Assembly: GCA_016783355.1 (NCBI GenBank)
Contig: JADHWR010000001.1
Coordinates: forward strand, 6,072 to 70,071
Length of the DNA: 64,000 nucleotides
Direction: 5' to 3'
Source of the DNA: Candidatus Omnitrophota bacterium
GTDB lineage: Bacteria; Omnitrophota; Gorgyraeia; Gygaellales; JAHJCI01
Below the pieces are notes generated by a model, which saw only the letters and a list, made by a program, of their open reading frames with translations, ran no database searches and was not told the origin of the DNA. Positions 4,580 to 63,730 of this stretch are shown here, piece by piece. The position numbers were made by a program, and so were the translations under genes. The stretch's first letter is position 1. Every line of letters starts with the position of its first letter.

Positions 4580-7500
4580 CTAAGTTACCTTTTCCATCTG
4601 CGCCTCTCGATGTGCAATAAAGCCGGTTCCTGCAGGAATTAAATGTCCAACAATCACATTTTCCTTCAATCCATATAAAACATCCCGTGCACCACGAGAA
4701 GCAGCATCGGTCAAAACCCGTGTTGTCTCCTGGAAGCTTGCTGCAGAAATAAAGCTATCTGTGCTCAATGATGCCCTGGTAATACCTTGCAACTGTGGTG
4801 TGGCTGAAGCAGGAGTGCCGCCCTTTTTCATCACACGCTCATTCTCGGTTTTAAATCTCAATTTATCCACTAATTCTCCAGGTAAAAATTCTGTATCTCC
4901 AGAGTCTTCTATACGCACTTTCTTCAGAATCTGTCGAATAATCAATTCAACGTGCTTATCACTAATCTGCACCCCTTGTAAACGATAGACTTCCTGAATC
5001 TCATTCAAAAGATACTCTGCAAGTCTTTTGTCTCCACAAATACGCAAGATTTCCTGAAGCACAACTGGTCCATCTGTAAGCTGGTCGCCGGCGCTGACGC
5101 GGTCCCCTTTATAAACGTTGGGGTGCTTACCATGGGGCATAATATACTCACGCTCCATGCCTGTCGGTGAACGGACAATAATTATTCGTTCGCCTTTCTT
5201 GCCTTCTCCAAATTCTACAAATCCATCAATCTCACTAATTATTGCCGGATTCTTTGGTCGGCGTATCTCAAATAATTCGGCAACGCGCGGCAGACCTCCT
5301 GTAATATCATGGGTTTTGGCAATGATGCGTGGGGTCTTCGCTAAACAGGCTCCTGCATTAATCTGCTCGGTATCCTTAACTAAAACATGGGCGCCTACGG
5401 GGAGCGGATAAAGACTGAGCACATCTTCTTTCTCATCTAAAATAACAATCTGAGGATGATATTCTTGTTTATGCTCCATCACTACTCGCTCAGTAACCTT
5501 GGTTACAGGATTAAACTCATCCTCAATACTAACTCCTGGAATTAAATCCTCAAATCTAACCCGGCCAGCTACTTCTGTCAAAATCGGAGAGTTATAAGGA
5601 TCCCAATGGACAAAAGCCATTCCCTTCTCAGTCAAAGTCTTATCAGCAAAAGCAACCAGCCCTCCATAGGGTACGGTATAACGTTCAAGTTCCCGGCCTT
5701 CCTGATCATTAATACTAATTACGCCATTACGATTAAGCACAAGAAATTCTTTGCCCACCCTTACTATTTTTAAGTTATGGTAGGTTAATATGCCTTTGTT
5801 TCTTGATTTTATCGAAGAGCGCTCAATCACACGAGAAGCTGTTCCGCCAATATGAAATGTGCGCATAGTAAGTTGTGTGCCGGGTTCGCCGATACTCTGA
5901 GCAGCAATTATTCCTACTGCCTCGCCTAATTCAACCTGCTTTCCCCGGGCAAGGTCCCGGCCATAACAGGTGGCGCAAATCCCCCTTTCTGCCTCGCAGA
6001 TAAGAACACTGCGTATCCTTATCTTCTCAATACCTAAACGCTCAATAATATCTGCCTTCTCTTCAGTAATCTCTTTGCCTGCCTCAACAATAACCTCATC
6101 AGTAATAATATCAACAATGTTATCGAGGGCAGTCCTTCCCACGATACGCTCGCGAAGAGGTATAACCACCTCATCTCCTTCAATAAGTGCGCTAACTGTA
6201 ATTCCATTAAGTGTACCGCAATCCTTCCTGGTTACAATTATATCCTGAGCAACATCTACCAATCGGCGAGTAAGATATCCTGCATCAGCTGTCTTTAGGG
6301 CTGTATCAGCGAGTCCTTTTCTTGCGCCATGTGTGGAGATAAAATATTCAAGAACGGTTAAACCCTCACGAAAATTTGCTGTAATAGGAGTTTCGATAAT
6401 CTCGCCTGATGGTTTTGCCATCAATCCACGCATTCCGCAAAGCTGCCTCACCTGCAGGCGCGAACCTCTTGCACCAGAATCAGCCATCATAAAGATTGGG
6501 TTAAAGGGTGTCATTTGCGAAAAGAGATAGTCAGTAACCCTATCTGTAGCATGTGTCCAGATATCAACAACACGATTAGATTTTTCTCTCTCTGTAATTA
6601 TGCCGTCTTTATAAAGCGTATCTACTTTGTCAACCTCGTTCTGTGCCTTCTTTATAACCTCTGCTTTTTGTGAGGGAATATGCAAATCCCCAATGGCAAT
6701 CGTGATACCCCCTAAGGTGGCAAATTCAAAGCCTTGTTCTTTTATTTCATCTAACAACTGAATTGTTCGTGCGTGACCAAAGCGTTTGTAGCATTCATCG
6801 ATTATATCGGCAACCAAGAATCTATTTAATTCCCTATTTACAAATCCAAAACCCTCCGGCAGCACTTGATTGAAGATGATTCTTCCCACTGTTGTTGTAA
6901 TTAGCCCTGTTGAGTCTTTAGCCTTTCTCTCATCCAGATCATATACCTTATTGACTTTCGTCTTTATCAATTCATGTAGGTCAATTATCTTATCGTTGTA
7001 CGCAGAGAGTGCCGCCGCAGGCGTGCTAAAGATTAAATCCTTTATCTTGCCGGCAGAGCCTTGCTTGGTAAAATAATTGCAACCCAGAATGATATCCTGT
7101 GTAGGCGATGTAATCGGCCGGCCATTGGCAGGAGAAAACATATTATTAATCGAAAGCATTAAAAGCTTTGCCTCCATCTGTGATTCCAACGACAGGGGGA
7201 CATGCACAGCCATCTGGTCACCATCAAAATCAGCATTAAAAGCGGCACATACCAAGGGATGGATCTTGATTGCCTTGCCCTCAATAAGTCTTGGTTGAAA
7301 TGCCTGCATACTTAAACGATGCAAGGTTGGTGCGCGATTCAAAAGCACGGGATGGTCACTTACAACTTCCTCGAGAATATCCCAAACCTCAACCTTTCCC
7401 CGCTCAACCATTCGGCGTGCCCCCTTAATTGTATGAACAAAGCCTTTCTGGCATAACCTCTTAATAATAAATGGCTCAAATAACTCAACCGCCATCTGCT

Positions 7501-12383: not shown

Positions 12384-12397
12384 TTTTTACCCCCTTT

Positions 12398-12494
12398 AAT
12401 GAGTCCGCCAAAGTTCGTTGGCGGACGAATTAATCCCGCTGAGTGTGCCAAAATTATAAAATAGAATTTTGGCACATATTACGAAGCGGGATAA
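12398..12494 (-). ncRNA. Structured leader repeat, copy 1 of 3 (about 100 nt), directly upstream of the rplL ribosome-binding site
   Basis: Its AATGAGTCCGCCAAAGTTCGTTGGCGGACGAATT hairpin is identical to that in copies 2 and 3. A long nested hairpin follows (ATCCCGC...GCGGGAT enclosing GTGCCAAAATT...AATTTTGGCAC). The inner stem differs from copies 2 and 3 by compensatory changes. Confidence 0.6.
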
Positions 12495-12496
12495 GT

Positions 12497-15672: not shown

Positions 15673-16326
15673 TTATTCTAAGGCCTTTAAAAGCTCCTCA
15701 CCGAACTCTTTAGCTGCAAATGGACCAGCGGCAGTAATAATATTGCCATCTCTTACTACAGCTCCCCCTGTATAGTTAGCTCCTGCTTGTTGTAACTTCC
15801 CTGCTTCACTTGACCAAACAGTGGCAGATTTACCTTTAAGTAAGCCTGCCTTCGCCAGGATTACAGGAGCAATACAAATTGCGCCAACGATTTTATTTGC
15901 GGCAGAGGCATCCAATGCAATCTTATGGGCTTTGGCATTATCCCAATAAACGCTTGCACCACTGCCACCTATAAAAACCACAGCATCAAAATCAAAAGGA
16001 CTTAGCTCTTCAATCGTTAAATCAGGCTTTATTTTTGCTCCTAACATGCCCTGGGCATAATCTTGCGTAAAAGCAGCAACCTTAACTTCACAGCCTGCAT
16101 CCTCTAAAACCTGTTTGGGAATAAGTAGCTCTTCATCTCTGAAATTTTTCTGCGCAATAATCATCACTACTTTTTTCATCTCTTGGCCTCCTGCCTGCCC
16201 CGTTAGAAACTTTGTTTTTAACGGGGCCTGCGCCCAAACAACCTTTAAGAAAAAGGCACAAAAAAATCCAACCATTAAGCAAAAAACTGTTGTCCATTTC
16301 TGAAGTAGAACAAGATTCTTATTCAA
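15673..16326 (-). CDS. DJ-1/PfpI family protein. The start is ambiguous: either the long ORF has a signal-peptide-like N-terminus, or translation starts at the internal MKKVVMII
   Basis: The class I glutamine amidotransferase-like DJ-1 core has the nucleophile-elbow context ICIAP. A family-1 mini-element lies in the N-terminal extension at 16198-16226. Confidence 0.8.
   Translation of the reverse strand: MNKNLVLLQKWTTVFCLMVGFFCAFFLKVVWAQAPLKTKFLTGQAGGQEMKKVVMIIAQKNFRDEELLIPKQVLEDAGCEVKVAAFTQDYAQGMLGAKIKPDLTIEELSPFDFDAVVFIGGSGASVYWDNAKAHKIALDASAANKIVGAICIAPVILAKAGLLKGKSATVWSSEAGKLQQAGANYTGGAVVRDGNIITAAGPFAAKEFGEELLKALE
16198..16226. mobile_element. Family-1 miniature palindromic element (29 bp) flanked by CCTG direct repeats, in the 5' part of the DJ-1/PfpI ORF
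   Basis: The sequence is CCCCGTTAGAAAC-TTTG-TTTTTAACGGGG. CCTG occurs at 16194-16197 and again at 16227-16230. Confidence 0.6.
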
Positions 16327-26267: not shown

Positions 26268-26913
26268 TTAAAACATCCCAAATCATCTTAACCTGTTTTT
26301 TTGTCTCAGATTTCGTCCCACTATTATCAATAACAAAATCAGCTAAATTTAGCTTCTTTTTTAATGGCATCTGCAAATTTATGCGCTTTTTAATTTCCGA
26401 AAGGCAAAATCCCTTTTTTTTAAGGCGCAATTTTTGAATGTCTGACCTTGCCCTTACGGCAATTATCTTATCCACGATTCTCGCCAGTCCTGCTTCGATT
26501 AATAAGGGTGCATCAATTATAATAAACTTAAAATTTCGGGCCTGCTGAATCTGTATTTTAATTTCCTTAATTATTCCTGGATGCAGAATTTCGTTGAGCT
26601 TCTTTAGGGAATGCTTATTTCTGAAAGCACTCTTAGCTAACCTTTTTCGATTAATCTGTTGATTCCTGGAAAGTATCCTTTCCCCAAATGCCGCAAGAAC
26701 CCGCCTGTAAGCCCCGTTCGAAGTAAGGCGCCCAAGGCGACTGCCCCGCCAAATTCCGTGGCGGGGACTTCTAACGGGGTAAGCCTTTTTCTTGGGCTCG
26801 ATTAACTGATGCGCAATCCTATCTGCATCAATAATCTGAGCGCCTAATTGTTTAAAATAGTGCGCGCACGTCGTCTTCCCTGTGCCAAAACTGCCGGTAA
26901 TACCAACAATCAT
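26227..26913 (-). CDS. coaE: Dephospho-CoA kinase. The likely start is [15 protein letters not shown]. It carries an in-frame family-1 element
   Basis: P-loop [12 protein letters not shown] and CoaE family sequence. About 24 aa ([23 protein letters not shown]) are encoded by the inserted palindromic element. Confidence 0.85.
26712..26779. mobile_element. Family-1 palindromic element (68 bp) inserted in frame in coaE
   Basis: Termini CCCCGTTCGAAGT...ACTTCTAACGGGG with an inner CCCCGCC...GGCGGGG hairpin. TAAG direct repeats flank both ends, and element plus 4 bp equals 72 bp, which is 24 codons. Confidence 0.7.
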
Positions 26914-28295: not shown

Positions 28296-30964
28296 TTAAT
28301 CTCCTCCATCTCTAACCAATTCTTACCCTTCTTTATTACTACCTTTATGGGAACAGAAAGGGCTAAGGCATTCTCCATCTCATAAGATATCATCTCAATT
28401 GCCCTCTGCAATTGCCCGTTCGGTATCTCAAAAATAAGTTCATCGTGAATTTGCAGGAGGAGCTTCGCCGAAAGCGTTCTTTCCTCAATCTTCTGATATA
28501 TCTTAATCATCGCCATCTTAATTAAATCTGCTGCCGAGCCTTGGATGGATGAATTTACTGCCTGCCTTTCGGCAAATGCACGAACTGCGGCATTCTGATG
28601 ATTAATGTCAGGGAGATAGCGATGGCGACCTAAAATAGTTGTTACAAAATTGTCTTTTTTTGCCTTTTCAATCTGCCTGGCGATATAATCTTTTACTCTG
28701 GGATACCTTAAAAAATAGGCATCAATAAAGCGAGTTGCCTCCTCCCTTGAAATTCCTAATTCCCTTGCTAAACCAAAGGAAGATAGACCATAAATAATTC
28801 CAAAATTTATGCGCTTTGCTACTTCTCGCATCTGATCATTGACAATAGAATCCTCTGTGCCATAAACTAAAGAGGCAGTGGCACGATGTATGTCTTTGCC
28901 TTGCGAAAAAGCATCAATCAGCACCTTCTCGCCTGATAAATGTGCCAGAACCCTTAATTCTACCTGAGAATAATCAAAAGAGACCAAAAAATTATCCTCG
29001 CAACTCGTGATGAAAGCCTTTCGTATCTTGCGCCCTAACTCTGTCTTAATCGGTAGATTTTGCAAATTAGGATTAGAGGAGCTCAGTCTTCCCGTCTGTG
29101 TTCCTGTTTGATTGAAGAATGTATGAATGCGCAGGGTTTTTTTATCTGCCAGTTCCATTAAGGCATCGATATAAGTAGATTTTATTTTACAAAGCATACG
29201 ATATTCCAATAAAATTTTTGGTAAGGGATGCTGGCTTGCTAAGACAGCAAGAACCTCCTCATCGGTAGAGGCGCCTGTCTTTTTCTTTTTTATCACCGGC
29301 AGTTTTAATTTCTCAAAAAGAACCTGACGTAGCTGTAAGGGTGAGTTGATATTAAACGGCCCACCAGCAAGATGATAAATTTTACTGACCAGGCCTTTGC
29401 GCTTTTCTTCAATTTCAATGCCCAAGGCTTTAAGAAACTCTAAATCAAGCTTTATACCCTCTAATTCCATCTGCGCTAAAACAGGAATCAAGCGAATCTC
29501 TAAGTCGCAAAAGATGCGAAAGCTATCTTTAAGCTTTAGTTCTTTCTCTAAAACCGACTTAAGTGTTCCAATAACAACACAAACCTCAAGTGGACTTATC
29601 TTTCCTGCCCCGTTCGAAGTCCCCGCCGTAGGCGGGGCAGTCGCCCCGGGCGTCTTACTTCGAACGGGGCCTGCATCCAAAATTCTCTTCAGATAATCCC
29701 AGCACAGGCTCTCAAGACTATAATCAGACCGGGACGGATTCAAAAGATAAGCAGCAATCATCGTATCAAAACCTAACCCTTCTAGGGCGATATTATGCCG
29801 GGCTAATCGCAAAAAGATATCTTTTAGATTGTGGCCGATTTTCTTAATCTTTGGGTCTCTAAGGACAGGTTCAATGCTCTTTAAGGAGCCTTTCTCTAAT
29901 TCTAAAAAAGAATCACTCTCTGGAAGATAAACTGTCAACCCCTCCTCATTCATATAGAGAATCAACTCACCTGCCTGCCTAAACTGATCAATCCCGGCAA
30001 CCTGCCTGTTGGCACTTCGACGGAGTTTATCCCGAGCGAAGTCGAGGGACTCAGTGCTAGCACTCCGACTTCGCTCAGTGCCAACCCTGAGCTTGTCGAA
30101 GGGTTGCTCAGGTAAATCTTTAAGAAATTTTTTAAATTCTAACTCACGAAAGATTTCATAAAGATTTCTATAGTCAGGCTTCTTTATCTTTAAACTTTGC
30201 GCATCAAATTCTATATCTAAATCTGTCCTTAATTGTGCAAGATAATGACATAGTTTTATTTGCTCAATCTTTTCTTTCAAGCGAGAACGAAGCTTTTGTT
30301 CTTTTATCTGATCCAAATTCAATAAGAGATTTTCCAGAGACTTAAATTTATCCAGGAGCTTGGTGGCGGTCTTTTCTCCTATGCCAGGAACACCCGGGAT
30401 ATTATCAGCTGTATCTCCGGCAAGAGCAATAAAGTCAGCAATTCTGCCGGGTAAAAATCCGTATTGGCGCTTAACCCCTGCCACATCATAAATTATCTTT
30501 TTGTCTTTATGAGGATGCAGAACAATAACTCCCTCATCCACTAATTGCAAGATATCCTTATCAGCGCTGACAATCATTATTGTAAAATCCTTCTCTTTTG
30601 CCTTCCTGGTTAATGTCGCAATAACATCGTCTGCTTCAAAGCCCTCCTTCTCAAATATATTAATTCCAAAGGCCTTGATTATCTTTTTAATGTAAGGCAG
30701 TTGAGTCACTAAATCCGCAGGCATAGGAGGACGTTGTATCTTGTAACGCGCAAATTCTTTTTGGCGAAATGTGTGCCTTGAGACATCAAAACATACACCC
30801 ATATACTGCGGATTTATCTCTTTTAAAACCTTATTCAGAAAATTCACAAAGCCATAAATAGCATTGGTACAAAGACCGTAAGAGGTCGCAAGCCCCCTTA
30901 TGGCATAATAGGCGCGGTAACAGATGCCGTTGGCATCAATAAGTACTACTTGGGCTTTATCCAT
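28292..30964 (-). CDS. polA: DNA polymerase I (5'-3' exonuclease plus polymerase domains) carrying two different in-frame repeat insertions
   Basis: An 890 aa ORF with 5'-nuclease N-terminal sequence, Klenow-like motifs (..DYSQVELRVLAHLS.. ..QIHDELIFE..) and two inserted peptide segments that match the repeat families. Confidence 0.92.
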   Translation of the reverse strand: MDKAQVVLIDANGICYRAYYAIRGLATSYGLCTNAIYGFVNFLNKVLKEINPQYMGVCFDVSRHTFRQKEFARYKIQRPPMPADLVTQLPYIKKIIKAFGINIFEKEGFEADDVIATLTRKAKEKDFTIMIVSADKDILQLVDEGVIVLHPHKDKKIIYDVAGVKRQYGFLPGRIADFIALAGDTADNIPGVPGIGEKTATKLLDKFKSLENLLLNLDQIKEQKLRSRLKEKIEQIKLCHYLAQLRTDLDIEFDAQSLKIKKPDYRNLYEIFRELEFKKFLKDLPEQPFDKLRVGTERSRSASTESLDFARDKLRRSANRQVAGIDQFRQAGELILYMNEEGLTVYLPESDSFLELEKGSLKSIEPVLRDPKIKKIGHNLKDIFLRLARHNIALEGLGFDTMIAAYLLNPSRSDYSLESLCWDYLKRILDAGPVRSKTPGATAPPTAGTSNGAGKISPLEVCVVIGTLKSVLEKELKLKDSFRIFCDLEIRLIPVLAQMELEGIKLDLEFLKALGIEIEEKRKGLVSKIYHLAGGPFNINSPLQLRQVLFEKLKLPVIKKKKTGASTDEEVLAVLASQHPLPKILLEYRMLCKIKSTYIDALMELADKKTLRIHTFFNQTGTQTGRLSSSNPNLQNLPIKTELGRKIRKAFITSCEDNFLVSFDYSQVELRVLAHLSGEKVLIDAFSQGKDIHRATASLVYGTEDSIVNDQMREVAKRINFGIIYGLSSFGLARELGISREEATRFIDAYFLRYPRVKDYIARQIEKAKKDNFVTTILGRHRYLPDINHQNAAVRAFAERQAVNSSIQGSAADLIKMAMIKIYQKIEERTLSAKLLLQIHDELIFEIPNGQLQRAIEMISYEMENALALSVPIKVVIKKGKNWLEMEEIK
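29608..29669. mobile_element. Family-1 palindromic element (62 bp) inserted in frame in polA
   Basis: Perfect TIRs CCCCGTTCGAAGT / ACTTCGAACGGGG with an inner CCCCGCCGTAGGCGGGG hairpin. CCTG direct repeats sit at 29604-29607 and 29670-29673. The element encodes GPVRSKTPGATAPPTAGTSNGAG. Confidence 0.75.
30008..30113. repeat. Family-2 palindromic repeat (about 100 bp) inserted in frame in polA. It encodes DKLRVGTERSRSASTESLDFARDKLRRSANRQ
   Basis: Imperfect palindrome GAGCGAAGTCGAGGGACTCAGTGCTAGCACTCCGACTTCGCTC plus the CCTGAGCTTGTCGAAGGG core shared with the array at 31007-31198. Confidence 0.65.
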
Positions 30965-31006: not shown

Positions 31007-31198
31007 CCTCGACTTCGTCCCTCGACTTCGTCCCTCGACTTCGTCCCTCGACTTCGTCCCTCGACTTCGCTCGGGACGACCCTGAGCTTGTCGAAGGGTC
31101 GCTCGGGACGACCCTGAGCTTGTCGAAGGGTCGCTCGGGACGACCCTGAGCTTGTTGTCGAAGGGTCGCTCAGTGTCAATCCTGAGCTTGTCGAACGG
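31007..31198. repeat. Tandem array of family-2 units upstream of polA: five copies of a 13 bp unit then three copies of a 32 bp unit. This is not a CRISPR array
   Basis: CCTCGACTTCGTC appears five times. CGGGACGACCCTGAGCTTGTCGAAGGGTCGCT appears three times, followed by a partial CCTGAGCTTGTCGAACGG. There are no unique spacers. The array generates the spurious 68 aa ORF at 30973-31179. Confidence 0.8.
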
Positions 31199-31207
31199 AT
31201 TGAATTA

Positions 31208-32152
31208 TTAGTTTTTAGGGGTTAATTCCGTGGCTATCTTTTCTAAAGTCTGCTTTGCAGTTACAATATCATCCTGCTCATAGAATCTGATCGCATCTTG
31301 AAACTTGGCCTGCATAATAGCGATGTGTTCTTGTTTTTGTTTTTCTTTAATCTCTTTATTTATTTTATCTATTAAGGTCAAAAATGAGTCTCTGTCTGAC
31401 GGGTCCAAAGAAATGGCTAACACCAGTGCATTTTTTGCTTCCTCTATTTTGTGCTCTTCATATAAATCATCAGCCAGTTCCTTAAGTTTTTGAATCTCTT
31501 TTAACTCTGTTAATCTGACTGCCTTTTTATGAATGGCGAGCTCACGCACTAAACTAAGCGTCTCTTCCTCTATCAACTCCTGCTGAAGAGAAGGCTGAGT
31601 CTCTGCGATGGCCTGGCGTCTGCGTTTCGCCCACTCCACCCAAGACTCACCGGGAATTCCCAATTCTATACGTTTTTTCCAATAATCAAAAGCCTTCTTT
31701 AGTTCTCTTTTTTGCTCATAAAGCATAGCTAAATTTGAATATAAATTATGATACTGGGGATTTAATTTTAGTCCAACTAAATAAATCTTCTCTGCCCTAT
31801 CAAGTAAACCCTTGGCCTCAAACATAATTCCTAAATCATTGTAAGCAATAACATAAGCAGGGTCTAACTCAATTGCCTTCTGATAACAGACTGTGGCACT
31901 ATCTAAATCACCGCGCTGCTGAAACTGCAAACCTTGACTTCGAAGAAGACGTGCCTCTTTTTGAAAAGTAGTTTGTTTCTGCGCAAAAAGTGAGGTTGGG
32001 AAACAGAATAAGTTAATTGTTATAAATAAATTAATTGCTACAAAAGAGATAATTCCCTTTGTAAACCCCGTTCGAAATTCCTCCAATCTTTGCTTAAGGC
32101 TTAATGATACATAAGTAGCCGAGGCTTTTGAATCTATCTTAAATCTATGCAT
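31208..32152 (-). CDS. TPR-repeat protein with an N-terminal transmembrane/signal segment. The annotated start codon lies inside family-1 element A
   Basis: A 314 aa ORF with a hydrophobic segment (IISFVAINLFITINLFCF) and several TPR-like helices (AYNDLGIMFEAKG...). Confidence 0.7.
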   Translation of the reverse strand: MHRFKIDSKASATYVSLSLKQRLEEFRTGFTKGIISFVAINLFITINLFCFPTSLFAQKQTTFQKEARLLRSQGLQFQQRGDLDSATVCYQKAIELDPAYVIAYNDLGIMFEAKGLLDRAEKIYLVGLKLNPQYHNLYSNLAMLYEQKRELKKAFDYWKKRIELGIPGESWVEWAKRRRQAIAETQPSLQQELIEEETLSLVRELAIHKKAVRLTELKEIQKLKELADDLYEEHKIEEAKNALVLAISLDPSDRDSFLTLIDKINKEIKEKQKQEHIAIMQAKFQDAIRFYEQDDIVTAKQTLEKIATELTPKN

Positions 32153-32171
32153 ATCTAAATTTCGAACGGGG
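32046..32171. mobile_element. Family-1 element A (126 bp) with perfect 13 bp TIRs. TAAA flanks it on both sides
   Basis: CCCCGTTCGAAAT at 32046-32058 and ATTTCGAACGGGG at 32159-32171. TAAA is at 32042-32045 and at 32172-32175. Confidence 0.65.
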
Positions 32172-32433
32172 TAAACCCCGTTCGAAATAGGAAACGCTTT
32201 AATCTATCGTTCAAATAGCGTTTACCCTTTCCAGACTTCAGGTGTTTTTCTCTACTCATTGCATCATATTTATTTAGACAGGCTTCATAATAAATAAGCT
32301 TAAAGGGGCCTCTATTCTTAGTAGAAGACACCTTTCCTGAATTATGCTCACTAAAGCGTTTCCGTAAATCATTCGTTAAGCCTGTATACCATTTTTTATC
32401 TTTCTGGCTTTGAATTACATAAACATAATGCAT
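32155..32433 (-). CDS. Small GIY-YIG (URI-domain, UPF0213/YhbQ-like) nuclease, 92 aa
   Basis: MHYVYVIQSQKDKKWYTGLTNDLRKRFSEHNSG... shows the GIY...YIG spacing, the conserved Arg, and Glu in YYEAC. The last 9 codons (RTGFTPFEI) are read from TIR sequence. Confidence 0.8.
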   Translation of the reverse strand: MHYVYVIQSQKDKKWYTGLTNDLRKRFSEHNSGKVSSTKNRGPFKLIYYEACLNKYDAMSREKHLKSGKGKRYLNDRLKRFLFRTGFTPFEI

Positions 32434-32454
32434 TGCTTGTTATTTCGAACGGGG
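32176..32454. mobile_element. Family-1 element B (279 bp). Perfect 14 bp TIRs enclose a complete GIY-YIG nuclease ORF, and TAAA direct repeats flank both ends
   Basis: CCCCGTTCGAAATA at 32176-32189 and its inverse TATTTCGAACGGGG at 32441-32454. TAAA is at 32172-32175 and 32455-32458. The GIY-YIG ORF (32155-32433) starts 21 bp inside the right TIR boundary. Confidence 0.6.
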
Positions 32455-39282: not shown

Positions 39283-40440
<1,158 letters not shown>

Positions 40441-43287: not shown

Positions 43288-45378
43288 CTATAGTTTTCTT
43301 GCTATCTTCTCAATTTTATAGCCTTCCATTATATCGCCTATTTTATAATCAGAAAAATTACCTATGGATATGCCGCACTCATAACCTTCAGATACCTGAG
43401 AAACCTCATCTTTAAAACGCCGAAGATTGCTAATCTTTCCGCTAAAGATAGTAGTGTTGTCTCTGATTATATCTATATTGAGCGTGCGCAAGATCTTACC
43501 CTTAGTTATAGTACACCCCGCCACAACACCACTTCGCGAGAGATTAAAAACCTGCTTCACGCGTGCCTGTCCAAAAGATACCTTTTTTATCTTTGGGCTT
43601 AACAACCCTTCTAAAGCCGCCTTTATCTCCTCGACTAATTCATAAATTATATTGTATGTCCTTACCTCCACCTGCTCTTTTTTAATTAATTCCTTTGCTC
43701 GCTCTTCTATATTTATATGAAAACCCAAGATTAGCGCATCAGAGACAGACGCCAGCATTACATCTGAAGTGTTAATTAAGCCCACTCCTTTATGGGTTAT
43801 CTTAAATTTTACCTCTTTTGTCTCTAATTTTATTAGAGAATCCCGCACCGCCTCTAATGAGCCGAATGTGTCTGCTTTAATAATAATCTTCAGCTCTTTA
43901 AGAACACCGTTTTTTATTTCCTGATGTAAATCCTCCAGCGAAAACCGATGTGGTGAAATATTCCTTTTTTCCTTTGTCTCGCGCAGCGAGATAAGTGCTC
44001 TTGCCCCTTTCTCGTCCTTGACAACAAAAAATCTCTCTCCTGCCTCAGGCACGGATTCAAAACCTAAAATTCCCACAGGCTGACTGGCAGTAGCTTCCTC
44101 AACTCTCTGGCCACAGTCATTAAATATTGCCTTTACCTTTGCTAAGTTCTTCCCCGCAACAAGTAGATCATTAAGATGTAATTTTCCATTCTGCACCAAT
44201 AAAGTTGCCAGAGGACCCCTGTTTGGGTCCTGTCTTGCCTCAATAACAACACCCCTTGCTATCTGATTATAATCTGCTTTCAATTCTAACATTTCTGCCT
44301 CTAAAAGAATCATCTCTAATAATTCATCTATGCCCTGACCGGTTTTGGCAGAAACCTCTACCGTTACGGTCTTGCCTTGCCACTCCTCAGGAACTAAACC
44401 AATATCAGCAAGTTGCTTCTTTACCCTATCTACGTTAGCCTGAACTCGATCAACTTTATTTATGGCGACAATTATAGGAACCTCAGCATCTCGGGCATGG
44501 TTAATTGCCTCAATTGTCTGAGGCATAACACCATCATCAGCAGCAACCACTAAAACAACAATATCTGTAATCTGTGCGCCCCGTGCACGCATTGCCGTAA
44601 ATGCCTCATGACCGGGTGTATCCAAAAATGCAATCTTACCCTTATCTAAATTAACCTCATATGCACCGATGTGCTGGGTTATGCCTCCATGTTCAAAATC
44701 AACGACCTTTGTCTTTCTAATCATATCCAAAAGGGAGGTCTTACCATGGTCAACATGACCCATAAATGTTACTACGGGTGGACGAACATTTAAATCCTGA
44801 GGCTGGCTTGATACCTCATGTAAGGAAAGCAGGCGTTCTTCTAAAGAGGGAGCCTGCTTGACTTTAAAGCCAAAATTCTCACAAACCTGCTCTACTTCAT
44901 CTTTTCCTAAAGATTGGTTAATGTTGGCTAGGATTTTTAACTTTAAAAGTTCCTGCATTAGCTGCGAGAGTTTAATTTGAAGCTTAACCGCTAAATTCTT
45001 AACAGAAATAGGGAAATCTAATTCTAATACCTTAGCTTGTGGCGCCTCTTCAACCAAAATTGCTTGTAGCTGCTGGGGTTGAGGCTCTAAGGTCTTTGCT
45101 TGAATTTTAGACTTGCGGGAGACTCTTCTCTTTGGTTTAGGGGCTATTTCTTTCCTCTTGATTTGCTTTTTGCCTGGCTCTTTTCGTAGGACCGCAGGCT
45201 TTTTTGCTTTCCTTGCCCCGTTTGAAATCCCTCGCCTAACGGCGGGGGCAGCTACCTTTGGTGTCTTACTTCGAACGGGGTTTGGCTTTGTAGAGGAAGC
45301 CCTTAAGCGAGTCTTTGAAGCCTTTCTCACTTTAGTTTTTAATGCTTTTGGTTTCTTAGGTTTTTTTATCTTTTTCAT
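43288..45378 (-). CDS. infB: Translation initiation factor IF-2 with an in-frame family-1 element in the basic N-terminal region
   Basis: The GTPase domain ([13 protein letters not shown]...) and C-terminal domains are typical. The N-terminal segment NPVRSKTPKVAAPAVRRGISNGA is encoded by the palindrome. Confidence 0.92.
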   Translation of the reverse strand: MKKIKKPKKPKALKTKVRKASKTRLRASSTKPNPVRSKTPKVAAPAVRRGISNGARKAKKPAVLRKEPGKKQIKRKEIAPKPKRRVSRKSKIQAKTLEPQPQQLQAILVEEAPQAKVLELDFPISVKNLAVKLQIKLSQLMQELLKLKILANINQSLGKDEVEQVCENFGFKVKQAPSLEERLLSLHEVSSQPQDLNVRPPVVTFMGHVDHGKTSLLDMIRKTKVVDFEHGGITQHIGAYEVNLDKGKIAFLDTPGHEAFTAMRARGAQITDIVVLVVAADDGVMPQTIEAINHARDAEVPIIVAINKVDRVQANVDRVKKQLADIGLVPEEWQGKTVTVEVSAKTGQGIDELLEMILLEAEMLELKADYNQIARGVVIEARQDPNRGPLATLLVQNGKLHLNDLLVAGKNLAKVKAIFNDCGQRVEEATASQPVGILGFESVPEAGERFFVVKDEKGARALISLRETKEKRNISPHRFSLEDLHQEIKNGVLKELKIIIKADTFGSLEAVRDSLIKLETKEVKFKITHKGVGLINTSDVMLASVSDALILGFHINIEERAKELIKKEQVEVRTYNIIYELVEEIKAALEGLLSPKIKKVSFGQARVKQVFNLSRSGVVAGCTITKGKILRTLNIDIIRDNTTIFSGKISNLRRFKDEVSQVSEGYECGISIGNFSDYKIGDIMEGYKIEKIARKL
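45216..45280. mobile_element. Family-1 palindromic element (65 bp) in frame in infB
   Basis: CCCCGTTTGAAAT...ACTTCGAACGGGG termini with an inner CCCTCGCC...GGCGGGGG hairpin. Element plus 4 bp equals 69 bp. Confidence 0.7.
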
Positions 45379-46549: not shown

Positions 46550-46630
46550 GTTCTTTGTCTAAATATGGGTAAATATGGGGACGGTTCTCGCTATCTTATT
46601 GTAATACAACAAGATAAAAATAAATTTTCG

Positions 46631-46805
46631 CCACAAAGTCGCCACAAAAACGTTGACGACCCGCCAAAGTATTGTGGCGGGATTTGCACCAGAAAGTCGC
46701 CACAAAGCGTTGGCGACCCGCCAAAGTATTATGGCGGGATTTGCACCAGAAAGTCGCCACAAAGCGTTGGCGACCCGCCAAAGTATTATGGCGGGATTGG
46801 CGCAT
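46631..46805. repeat. Three tandem copies of a 57 bp double-hairpin repeat between rimP and nusA, plus a degenerate fourth hairpin
   Basis: Each unit is GTCGCCACAAAGCGTTGGCGAC + CCCGCCAAAGTATTATGGCGGG. Copies start near 46631, 46691 and 46748. The repeats generate overlapping spurious ORFs on both strands. Confidence 0.8.
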
Positions 46806-46853
46806 CCGCCGGTTCTTATTGGAGGCGAATCCGCCAATTATTTTGGCGGAAGC

Positions 46854-56922: not shown

Positions 56923-56937
56923 CGCTCCTACCTCCTC

Positions 56938-57031
56938 AATGAGTCCGCCAAAGTTCGTTGGCGGACGAATTGATCCCGCCGAATGCTCTAAAATTATCAG
57001 GGAGAATTTTAGAGCAGTTTATGAGGCGGGG
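56938..57031 (-). ncRNA. Structured leader repeat, copy 2 of 3, directly upstream of the ribosome-binding site of the OmpA-like gene
   Basis: AATGAGTCCGCCAAAGTTCGTTGGCGGACGAATTGATCCCGCCGAATGCTCTAAAATTATCAGGGAGAATTTTAGAGCAG...GAGGCGGGG. Confidence 0.6.
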
Positions 57032-57116
57032 TATGTACATTATTTGGGTCATTCCATAAGTCTCGTCCTTACTTATTTTAAATTATATCTATACCTTCGT
57101 CAATATCTATAAATTT

Positions 57117-62972: not shown

Positions 62973-62983
62973 TGTGACCTCCT

Positions 62984-63085
62984 CAATGAGTCCGCCAAAG
63001 TTCGTTGGCGGACGAATTGATCCCGCCGAATGCTCTAAAATTATCCCCTGCGGGGAGAATTTTAGAGCAGCTTATGAGGCGGGAT
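62984..63085 (-). ncRNA. Structured leader repeat, copy 3 of 3, directly upstream of the clpP ribosome-binding site. A TATAAT box sits just upstream on the minus strand
   Basis: It matches copy 2 but carries an extra apical CCCCTGCGGGG hairpin. On the minus strand, TATAAT lies about 7 nt before the element's 5' end. Confidence 0.6.
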
Positions 63086-63116
63086 ATACATTATTATAGT
63101 AATCTCTTAAAACTAA

Positions 63117-63331: not shown

Positions 63332-63730
63332 TGAGCCACCCGCGACTCGAACGCGGCACACCCGCCTTAAACATTTTTGTTAACTGTATGTCGCCATACA
63401 GATCAGACTATCCCATCCCCCTCACGCTTATCCTTAAAAAAGAAAGCGATGGGGGTCTCGATTATAGTCGTTGAACCTTCCCAGTACTTATTTGCTAAGA
63501 TAATTTCTGATTCAAATAAATGCCGGGCTTGGCTGCAGATTGTCTGCATTTAAGAATTTTTACCCCCGCCACAATACTTTGGCGGGTCGCCAATGCTTTG
63601 TGGCGACAGACATAAAGGGTATCTTAAAATACTCAGACTTTCCCGCAATTTACGAGATTCTCACTATTGATTTCTCAATAATGGCCCCTTTTTCGCGAGG
63701 GCGGTGCTCTACCAGATGAGCTAGTGGCCC
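63332..63730 (-). tRNA. Split tRNA gene (73 nt mature, anticodon inferred UUU, so Lys) interrupted in the anticodon loop by a 326 nt group I intron
   Basis: Exon 1 (63698-63730) is GGGCCACTAGCTCATCTGGTAGAGCACCGCCCT. Exon 2 (63332-63371) is TTTAAGGCGGGTGTGCCGCGTTCGAGTCGCGGGTGGCTCA. The two halves form a complete cloverleaf with a GGGCCAC/GTGGCTC acceptor and a CCGCC/GGCGG anticodon stem. Confidence 0.7.
63372..63697 (-). ncRNA. Group I intron within the tRNA-Lys(UUU) anticodon loop
   Basis: The 5' exon ends in U and the intron ends in G. Intron segments resemble the Tetrahymena P4 (AAAUUGCGGGAAAG), P6 (GCAGCCAAG) and P7 (ACGACUAUAAUCG...GAUAGUCUGAUC) regions. Its P5 region contains a copy of the rimP-nusA double-hairpin repeat. 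Confidence 0.7.

Follow-up and report, generated by a model that had tools for sequence, protein, structure and literature searches.

What is a GC-rich palindrome doing inside the coding sequence of an essential enzyme? The question is raised by coaE, the dephospho-CoA kinase gene in a 64,000-nt stretch of DNA from a Candidatus Omnitrophota bacterium (assembly GCA_016783355.1, contig JADHWR010000001.1; "the window" below means this whole stretch). A sequence-only reading of the stretch had placed in coaE a 68-bp member of a repeated element family, bounded by TAAG target duplications, and this holds up: the element occupies 26712–26779, with TAAG at 26708–26711 and again at 26780–26783. Beyond that reading, we find that the family spans many phyla, that its lengths add whole codons, and that 5.4 kb away there is a gene for a GIY-YIG nuclease with the same repeats at its ends. 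The coaE insert is very probably an insertion resembling a miniature inverted-repeat transposable element (MITE), and the explanation of the whole that we favour, with moderate confidence, is a non-autonomous, translated MITE that would be mobilised in trans by the GIY-YIG nuclease.

The palindrome in coaE

On the forward strand the insert reads GTAAG-CCCCGTTCGAAGT-AAGGCGCCCAAGGCGACTG-CCCCGCCAAATTCCGTGGCGGGG-ACTTCTAACGGGG-TAAGCC. Its two arms are 13-nt inverted repeats that match at 12 of 13 positions (CCCCGTTCGAAGT against CCCCGTTAGAAGT). As RNA or single-stranded DNA the copy is predicted to form a 13-bp stem, P1, capped by two hairpins, P2 and P3 (see the table), with a folding energy of −37.5 to −41.4 kcal/mol and z = −3.9 to −5.2. 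Hairpins of the P2 type (AG..GCC/GGC..CT) are also found in elements from other phyla, and a stem similar to P3 is present both in the window copy at 29608 and in a Ratteibacteria locus (L089). The three-way junction has no unpaired core, and for that reason a hammerhead-like ribozyme was rejected. Rfam, searched at gathering threshold for the entire window and at E ≤ 1 for 26600–26900, returned nothing relevant to the element.

Because the length of the element is of the form 3n+2, the element and its 4-bp duplication together add exactly 24 codons, and because the palindrome is stop-free in the frame used, the coaE frame stays open. Without these 72 bp the gene would join …GGCGGGTTC…CCTGTAAG directly to CCTTTTTC…. 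The inserted residues are translated between conserved dephospho-CoA kinase segments, as had been proposed. Specifically, the Pfam CoaE profile matches the protein (2.5e-44) in two stretches with a break at profile position 42/43, and in an alignment with 13 CoaE homologues the 24 residues stand opposite a clean gap between two conserved blocks. They are also missing from the solved CoaE proteins of Aquifex (2if2) and E. coli (6ari), whose alignments split at the same point. Every CoaE homologue examined lacks the insert, including the distant ones, in which its presence had been named as the observation that would count against insertion.

An AlphaFold model built on the 13-homologue alignment has a mean predicted local distance difference test (pLDDT) score of 87, with the whole kinase fold predicted confidently. 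Residues 45–64, between a helix at 31–38 and another at 66–77, fall below a pLDDT of 50 and have no predicted secondary structure. Because the kinase fold is confident and the alignment shows no loss in the P-loop or at any other invariant residue, coaE looks functional, with an extra surface loop that is probably floppy.

A dispersed family with a target rule and a reading frame

The termini of the family can be written as arm patterns, left CCCCGTTAGA and right TCTAACGGGG, and those of the small elements as CCCCGTT…AACGGGG. With at most two mismatches allowed, the window contains 12 matches to the arm motif where 0.85 would be expected, a number that no sequence in 100 shuffles attained: this recurrence is not a chance match. 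The arms bound seven units in the 64 kb, coaE and six further copies, five of the seven with perfect 4-bp flanks, which together with the terminal inverted repeats confirms that the coaE insert belongs to a repeated family. Over 45 nt, the copies in polA and coaE are 89% similar. For each of the four genic copies (coaE, polA, tgt and infB) the length plus 4 is a multiple of three, and all four are read as x-PVR[SN]…[TI]SNGA-x. The tgt insert stands opposite a 9-residue gap in solved Tgt, whereas the region of the polA copy varies in length among solved polymerases and shows no clean insertion in the alignment.

Features of the coaE locus and repeat-bounded units of the window (positions in the window; flanks are given as left/right).
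Feature	Position	Strand	Flanks or duplication	Remarks
coaE, dephospho-CoA kinase, 228 aa	26227–26913	−		Pfam CoaE; open reading frame intact
Left target-site duplication, 4 bp	26708–26711		TAAG on +, CTTA in coaE reading strand	fits YNNR
Left terminal inverted repeat CCCCGTTCGAAGT, P1 5' arm	26712–26724			rare C at position 8, like the GIY-YIG unit 32176–32454
Hairpin P2, AAGGCGCC-CAA-GGCGACTG	26725–26743			from folding; one G·A mismatch in the stem
Hairpin P3, CCCCGCC-AAATTCCGT-GGCGGGG	26744–26766			from folding
Right terminal inverted repeat ACTTCTAACGGGG, P1 3' arm	26767–26779
Right target-site duplication, 4 bp	26780–26783		TAAG
coaE copy, 68 bp	26712–26779		TAAG/TAAG
Minimal hairpin copy, 29 bp	16198–16226		CCTG/CCTG	probably just upstream of a gene start
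polA copy, 62 bp	29608–29669		CCTG/CCTG	orientation opposite to the coaE copy; reads GPVRSKTPGATAPPTAGTSNGA
106-bp copy	32066–32171		TAAA/TAAA	head to tail with the GIY-YIG unit
GIY-YIG unit, 279 bp	32176–32454	−	TAAA/TAAA	perfect 13-bp repeats CCCCGTTCGAAAT
Minimal hairpin copy in tgt, 29 bp	39867–39895		CTTG/TTTG
infB copy, N-terminal region, 65 bp	45216–45280		CTTG/TTTG	reads NPVRSKTPKVAAPAVRRGISNGA

The window elements are strong stem-loops, with z from −3.9 to −7.6. The P2 stem is 81% paired in three window copies against 100% in eight copies from other genomes, which makes the window copies look old and decaying. One of them also touches a neighbouring gene: the first ATG of the downstream open reading frame for a TPR protein (31208–32152, minus strand) falls within the 106-bp element, through whose repeat the frame reads (…EEFRTGFT…), and a shorter product of 292 aa is called in another assembly (L202). 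That gene may owe its start or 5' end to the element.

To follow the family into other genomes, species-representative genomes were scanned for two arms separated by 14–44 nt. The scan gave at least 119 loci with both arms, in about ten phylum-level groups. Among the loci listed are Patescibacteria of many classes, Planctomycetota (Pirellulales, Phycisphaerae and Sedimentisphaerales), Omnitrophota, Ratteibacteria, Elusimicrobia, Nitrospirae, and Thermodesulfobacteriota with other deltaproteobacterial metagenome-assembled genomes (MAGs), as well as individual MAGs with the labels Clostridia, Gammaproteobacteria, Pseudomonadota, Acidobacteriota and Bdellovibrionales; from phylum to phylum the family is distributed patchily. 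The scan pattern fixed GAAR at repeat positions 9–12, and variant frequencies taken from it are therefore biased.

Combining all retrieved DNA gives 154 unique small elements of 29–146 bp with very diverse interiors, and here the target rule becomes plain. Identical 4-bp flanks bound 95 of the 154 (about 62%), and in 21 more three of the four bases match, the odd base falling at any position. Matches in other registers are few (3 bp in three elements, 5 bp in one and 6 bp in none), and as a control the next 4-mers outward match in only 1 of 113. All 74 tabulated duplications are YNNR, mostly TAAA, TTTA, TTGA or TCAA; flanks that are not identical likewise obey Y…R, and the TAAG taken by the sequence-only reading for a target duplication follows this family-wide rule.

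A second regularity concerns length. Elements cluster at 3n+2 (41, 44, 47, 53, 59, 62, 65 and 68 bp), and the length plus 4 is divisible by three in 75 of 114 (p = 1.5e-12). Where an element is clearly genic, flanked on either side by 40 or more open codons (n = 34), the frame is restored in 31 cases. Two frames account for all 34, one reading PVR[NS]…[IT]SNG (26 elements) and the other PLE[IV]…[FL]LTG (8 elements); the third, which contains TAG or TAA in the arms, is used by none. A Y-shaped subfamily, of which the coaE copy is a member, is built as repeat, A, hairpin AG..GCC-loop-GGC..CT, G, hairpin CC…GG, repeat, an architecture that recurs in several phyla with different stem sequences. 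Covariation in P2 is real but modest: a strand is 95% paired with its own partner and 87% with the partner from another element.

The GIY-YIG unit

The 279-bp unit of the window contains an open reading frame for an 86-aa protein with a GIY-YIG domain (PF01541, 3.3e-19); the frame as called, 32155–32433, continues through the repeat. Its homologues are annotated in Omnitrophota, several Patescibacteria, Scalinduaceae and Dehalococcoidia. They are 70–80% identical across phyla, in contrast to the 51% at most that separates the CoaE of this organism from its nearest relative, and mostly have exactly 86 aa, ending …KRFLSLTG.

The nuclease loci (80 metagenomic and one viral) were retrieved by protein similarity alone, and the repeats bracket 79 of 85 homologous genes in metagenome, viral and window DNA. 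The layout is CCCCGTTAGAGAT, about 8 nt, ATG … ATCTCTAACGGGG; the right repeat itself forms the four final codons (…SLTG), and in many cases it is the flanking DNA (TGAA or TAAA) that supplies the stop. Nuclease-bearing units measure 274–299 bp. Their arms are identical at all 13 positions in 58 of 67 unique units and unrelated beyond position 13, and bases that depart from the consensus are mirrored in both arms 62 times but confined to one arm only 9 times. We scanned 1.1 Mb of retrieved sequence, in pieces of 4–8 kb, for repeat-bounded units of any kind, and these fell either below 150 bp (163 units) or between 250 and 299 bp (71 units). Nothing exceeded 299 bp in this 1.1 Mb, so that the GIY-YIG nuclease is the only gene found to be carried.

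Several arrangements tie the nuclease unit to the small elements. In the window, the 106-bp and 279-bp units share their middle TAAA as well as a C at repeat position 8, which is found in the nuclease unit and in four of the six small window copies and is elsewhere replaced by A in 147 of 170 arms, a count taken from unconstrained arms, not from the scan set. In another locus (L153, 30–589) two units of 279 bp that are 100% identical stand in tandem as CTGG-unit-CTGG-unit-CTGG, and tandems with a shared 4-mer occur also in L137, L196 and the window (TAAA); the sequences suggest that sites adjoining an existing element end are preferred targets. In a Kerfeldbacteria contig (PFMD01000052.1; L075, 6153–6198) the reading frame of a GIY-YIG gene of this subfamily is broken by a 46-bp small element inserted in it, so that there a small element parasitises its own putative helper.

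What kind of enzyme is it? The closest sequence matches are UPF0213 structural-genomics proteins (1zg2, E = 2e-10), and a Foldseek search with the predicted fold (pLDDT 88) puts 1zg2 first and then Slx1, ahead of I-TevI, the model superposing on Slx1 with a root-mean-square deviation of 1.7 Å over 71 columns. Residues Y3, Y5, Y16, G18, R26, N31, E50, R61 and E62 are invariant. By sequence and predicted structure the nuclease is thus placed in a UPF0213/Slx1-like branch with its catalytic residues kept, and the subfamily adds a conserved basic C-terminal helix (GMGKRYLKNRLKRFL). Against the intron-endonuclease model TIGR01453 it scores 20–22 bits, where the cut-off is 56. The broader family of small GIY-YIG proteins is large, with 14,062 cluster representatives at E ≤ 1e-3, 27 of which reach 1e-30. 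In the viral collection relatives were found on one contig only, and phage carriage as a route between phyla was rejected on that ground. This relative (L200, 2960–3262, IMG/VR) is 56% identical and has diverged repeats, CCCCGTAGGATTT … AAATCCAACGGGG, whose inner parts match between the arms.

Since the nuclease gene has no obvious promoter and in the window is co-oriented with its neighbours, its expression probably depends on read-through transcription. Many GIY-YIG units occupy one of two positions in one kind of host gene, …FDAIRQL-unit-M.PPEPKRK.IGF… or …PPKRRIGLD-unit-QVEEPKVPY…; the loci fall in two lists (L120, L123, L125–L128, L145, L151, L160, L170, L175 and L187; and L126, L132, L143, L146, L147, L156 and L167). 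Reconstruction of the empty site at …PPKRRIGLD-QVEEPKVPY… failed, the uninterrupted genes L159 and L162 being too diverged. A further candidate for an empty site, in L202, another assembly of this population (about 4660–4760, between MTHFR and TPR genes), was rejected: the run of N that replaces the unit there, starting immediately beyond the left repeat, is a scaffold gap. Repeats of the family evidently break short-read assemblies. Contig L201, for its part, begins about 190 bp upstream of polA, near the repeat tract there.

How the elements may move

The coaE element is small and non-coding, has terminal inverted repeats and a duplication of fixed length, and exists in multiple copies, as a MITE does; and a coding unit with the same ends is present both in the window and around the homologous genes elsewhere. 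What that unit encodes is a GIY-YIG nuclease, for which a transposase activity is our inference, as are its mobilising role and its mode of cutting and joining; what the sequences themselves show is how the elements are built, their rule of duplication, the frame bias, the range across phyla and the close tie of the nuclease gene to the repeats. We put the chance that the nuclease is the mobilising enzyme at about even, and propose only tentatively, at somewhat less than that, that this 86-aa protein is itself the transposase of an unrecognised class of prokaryotic element.

In the mechanism we propose, the element would fold, as single-stranded DNA or RNA, into the terminal-repeat stem with its two small hairpin caps. 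The nuclease, probably expressed by read-through, would as a structure-specific enzyme recognise a paired stem with the base CCCCGTT:AACGGGG, in a hairpin or a cruciform, and would mobilise both its own 279-bp unit and, in trans, the small derivatives. Recognition of a paired stem is probable because the inner half of the repeat varies between units yet stays complementary within each, and it would fit an Slx1-like structure-specific enzyme; the covariation from arm to arm is only indirect support for cleavage that depends on structure. Insertion would take place into 4-nt staggered cuts at YNNR, with joining left to host ligation and repair, or to an activity new for the GIY-YIG fold. At coaE, a mini-element very probably entered at TAAG, duplicating 4 bp, and is tolerated as a disordered surface loop translated between two helices.

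A number of observations weigh against this account. No uninterrupted coaE allele was found: a protein search returned the CoaE itself (100%, from a Candidatus Omnitrophica MAG) and then nothing nearer than homologues at 47–51% identity, and two other assemblies of the same population have the same insert, so that the insertion is inferred from the anatomy of the element and from distant homologues only. Identical flanks bound only 18 of 67 nuclease units; random pairing of flanks would give 5, and the small elements reach the 62% given above. GIY-YIG enzymes are hydrolytic nucleases whose usual stagger is 1–2 nt, not 4, and we know of none that joins DNA. At other loci, a small element and its co-resident nuclease unit often disagree at the inner repeat positions 11–13. 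At the …PPKRRIGLD-QVEEPKVPY… position the left junction is constant while the right one shifts deeper into the gene from locus to locus, which could reflect homing, adjacent deletions or repeated cutting. Finally, the window copies have diverged, with one repeat mismatch and an imperfectly paired P2, so that they need not be mobile today.

Some of these points would be expected if the small elements were MITEs of a conventional transposase encoded elsewhere, and the GIY-YIG gene a passenger or homing gene in a hairpin loop. GIY-YIG enzymes are known as homing and repair nucleases, not as transposases; perfect duplications are scarce around the nuclease units (18/67) relative to the small elements (95/154); the inner repeat variants often disagree; and the repeated presence of units at one place in a given type of host gene resembles homing. 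A passenger would hardly account, however, for the lack of any unit above 299 bp or of any other cargo in 1.1 Mb, for the tight fusion of gene and repeat in 79 of 85 cases, with some 8 nt from left repeat to ATG and the last codons forming the right repeat, or for a repeat core and a protein that are both unusually conserved across the same phyla, and 13 bp of homology is too short for classical recombination homing. On balance we consider it unlikely, though to be taken seriously. It is very improbable that the hairpins are REP-like palindromes that serve the host in mRNA stability, termination or protein binding and were spread by recombination: the stem-loops are indeed strong and conserved (z = −3.9 to −7.6), with P2 and P3 paired in different phyla, but exact 4-bp duplications with a target consensus point to insertion, copies sit inside essential coding regions with lengths that keep the frame, the phylum distribution is patchy and Rfam has no match.

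The remaining two alternatives concern coaE itself. That the 24 residues are a native, lineage-specific CoaE loop and the palindrome a coincidence is favoured by the lack of any close relative in which an uninterrupted gene could be seen; but the termini recur six more times in the window (where 0.85 matches are expected), genes of other kinds and other phyla have them too, a 45-nt stretch is 89% similar to the copy in polA, and the TAAG duplication is perfect. The multi-copy terminal repeats and the duplication effectively refute such a loop, and we give it almost no credence. We attach just as little to removal of the element after transcription or translation, as a mini-intron or in the manner of an intein, leaving a CoaE without it. 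The RNA stem would bring the ends of the element together, yet the frame-keeping bias in length and the stop-free frames make sense only if the element is translated, Rfam gave no ribozyme or intron match for the element, and 24 residues are too few for an intein.

How does the translated MITE that we favour compare with known systems? In its behaviour the coaE insert is closest to the Rickettsia palindromic elements (RPEs), which in the work of Ogata et al. (2000/2002), as summarised in PMC10969869, are palindromes of about 150 bp, inserted in frame and translated in housekeeping genes, with no known mobilising gene. Both are short palindromic selfish DNA placed in frame within unrelated housekeeping genes, translated and apparently tolerated. 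RPEs are described, in the work summarised there, within Rickettsia, whereas the present family has elements of 29–146 bp with 13-bp repeats and a 4-bp YNNR duplication, occurs in about ten phylum-level groups and has a candidate coding partner; we do not file the insert as an RPE, since it departs in size and host range from what has been published on them. With MITEs derived from insertion sequences (ERIC, BOX, QMITE; PMC10969869) the small elements share small size, inverted repeats, a duplication and many copies; in both cases the element itself encodes no transposase but has a coding relative whose ends are the same. However, the coding relative is here only about 279 bp and encodes a GIY-YIG protein in place of a DDE, HUH, serine or tyrosine transposase, and the interiors of the small elements are not deletion remnants of it. 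In a 2024 survey of conserved prokaryotic MITEs about 90% were intergenic, and neither these phyla nor endonucleases are mentioned there (PMC11602168); the present family, by contrast, is built for in-frame genic sites.

REP/REPIN-RAYT systems likewise combine scattered hairpin repeats, some inverted around a single small gene thought to move them, with recognition that probably acts on folded DNA. As published, RAYT is an HUH tyrosine transposase and REPs are extragenic, make no duplication and are mostly inherited vertically; here the gene is GIY-YIG (PF01541), the copies lie in coding genes with a 4-bp duplication, and the nuclease is 70–80% identical across phyla. Homing endonucleases of the I-TevI type are also selfish genes with a GIY-YIG catalytic domain, and the loosely defined CNNNG motif that I-TevI cuts is reminiscent of YNNR. 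But they have a long C-terminal DNA-binding domain, where the present protein of 86 aa has a catalytic domain and one helix, and they reside in introns and phage and spread by recombination with neither terminal repeats nor duplications, while the units here are chromosomal, repeat-flanked and at many different sites, with only one viral contig among them. Membership of that group was rejected for the lack of a separate DNA-binding domain, the TIGR01453 score below cut-off and the many sites. The closest relatives in sequence and fold are UPF0213 proteins (BH0048 and EF2693; the E. coli YhbQ family) and eukaryotic Slx1, which cuts branched and cruciform DNA and so fits recognition of a paired stem. 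We know of no reported link between these proteins and repeats or mobility, and the present subfamily differs from them in its basic C-terminal helix and in being embedded between repeats. In the full-text literature we found nothing that links GIY-YIG or UPF0213 genes to terminal repeats, duplications or MITEs, nor any description of the element family, and a family with a YNNR duplication, frame-keeping lengths, a multi-phylum range and a GIY-YIG partner appears to be undescribed.

The window holds further repeats and structured RNAs. A second hairpin repeat family lies at 46624–46817 (GTCGCC…GGCGAC, then CCCGCC…GGCGGG; three tandem 57-bp units at 46647–46817), its stems resembling P2 and P3 of the coaE element, and an inverted 43-nt copy of it (95%) is found at 63565–63607 within a group I intron (63384–63707, minus strand; Rfam 88 bits; flanks to about 63310 and 63780). 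Because its flanks, when joined, fold into a tRNA, the intron sits in a tRNA gene, which adjoins tRNA-Leu(tag) and tRNA-Gly and whose identity hinges on the exact splice junction. A hairpin-rich segment of about 105 nt (GAGTCCGCCAAAGTTCGTTGGCGGAC… then TCCCGCC…GGCGGGA) occurs at 12390–12496, 56930–57036 and 62977–63087, with two copies identical over 69 nt and those at 12390 and 56930 (minus strand) apparently in front of gene starts, with nothing between; a shared leader, a regulatory RNA and a further repeat family are all possible. Just upstream of polA there are tandem 13-bp and 32-bp repeats (30030–30110 and 31007–31198), and related sequence inside polA is translated as …PFDKLRVGTERSRSASTESLDFARDKLRRS…, another in-frame repeat family. 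A tRNA-Pro called there by ARAGORN (31068–31153) is probably false, as it lies within these tandem repeats.

For coaE itself the meaning is modest: an essential enzyme tolerates a 24-residue loop derived from a parasite, much as in the Rickettsia RPE cases. Tolerated in-frame inserts are thus shown to be frequent far beyond Rickettsia, Omnitrophota, Patescibacteria and Planctomycetota being among the groups that have them. Such inserts inflate and distort protein predictions, break MAG assemblies and can mimic horizontally transferred genes. Bacterial transposons are classed by their DDE, DEDD, HUH, serine or tyrosine enzymes. If the proposed role of the minimal GIY-YIG nuclease is true, it would add a new enzyme class and set a new lower size limit for autonomous elements; with 13-bp repeats and one tiny gene, the unit of about 279 bp would be, to our knowledge, the smallest autonomous transposon. 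It would act on a stem of folded DNA, move between phyla and spawn in-frame mini-derivatives such as those in coaE, polA, tgt and infB, and part of UPF0213, a large family of uncharacterised proteins, would gain a function.

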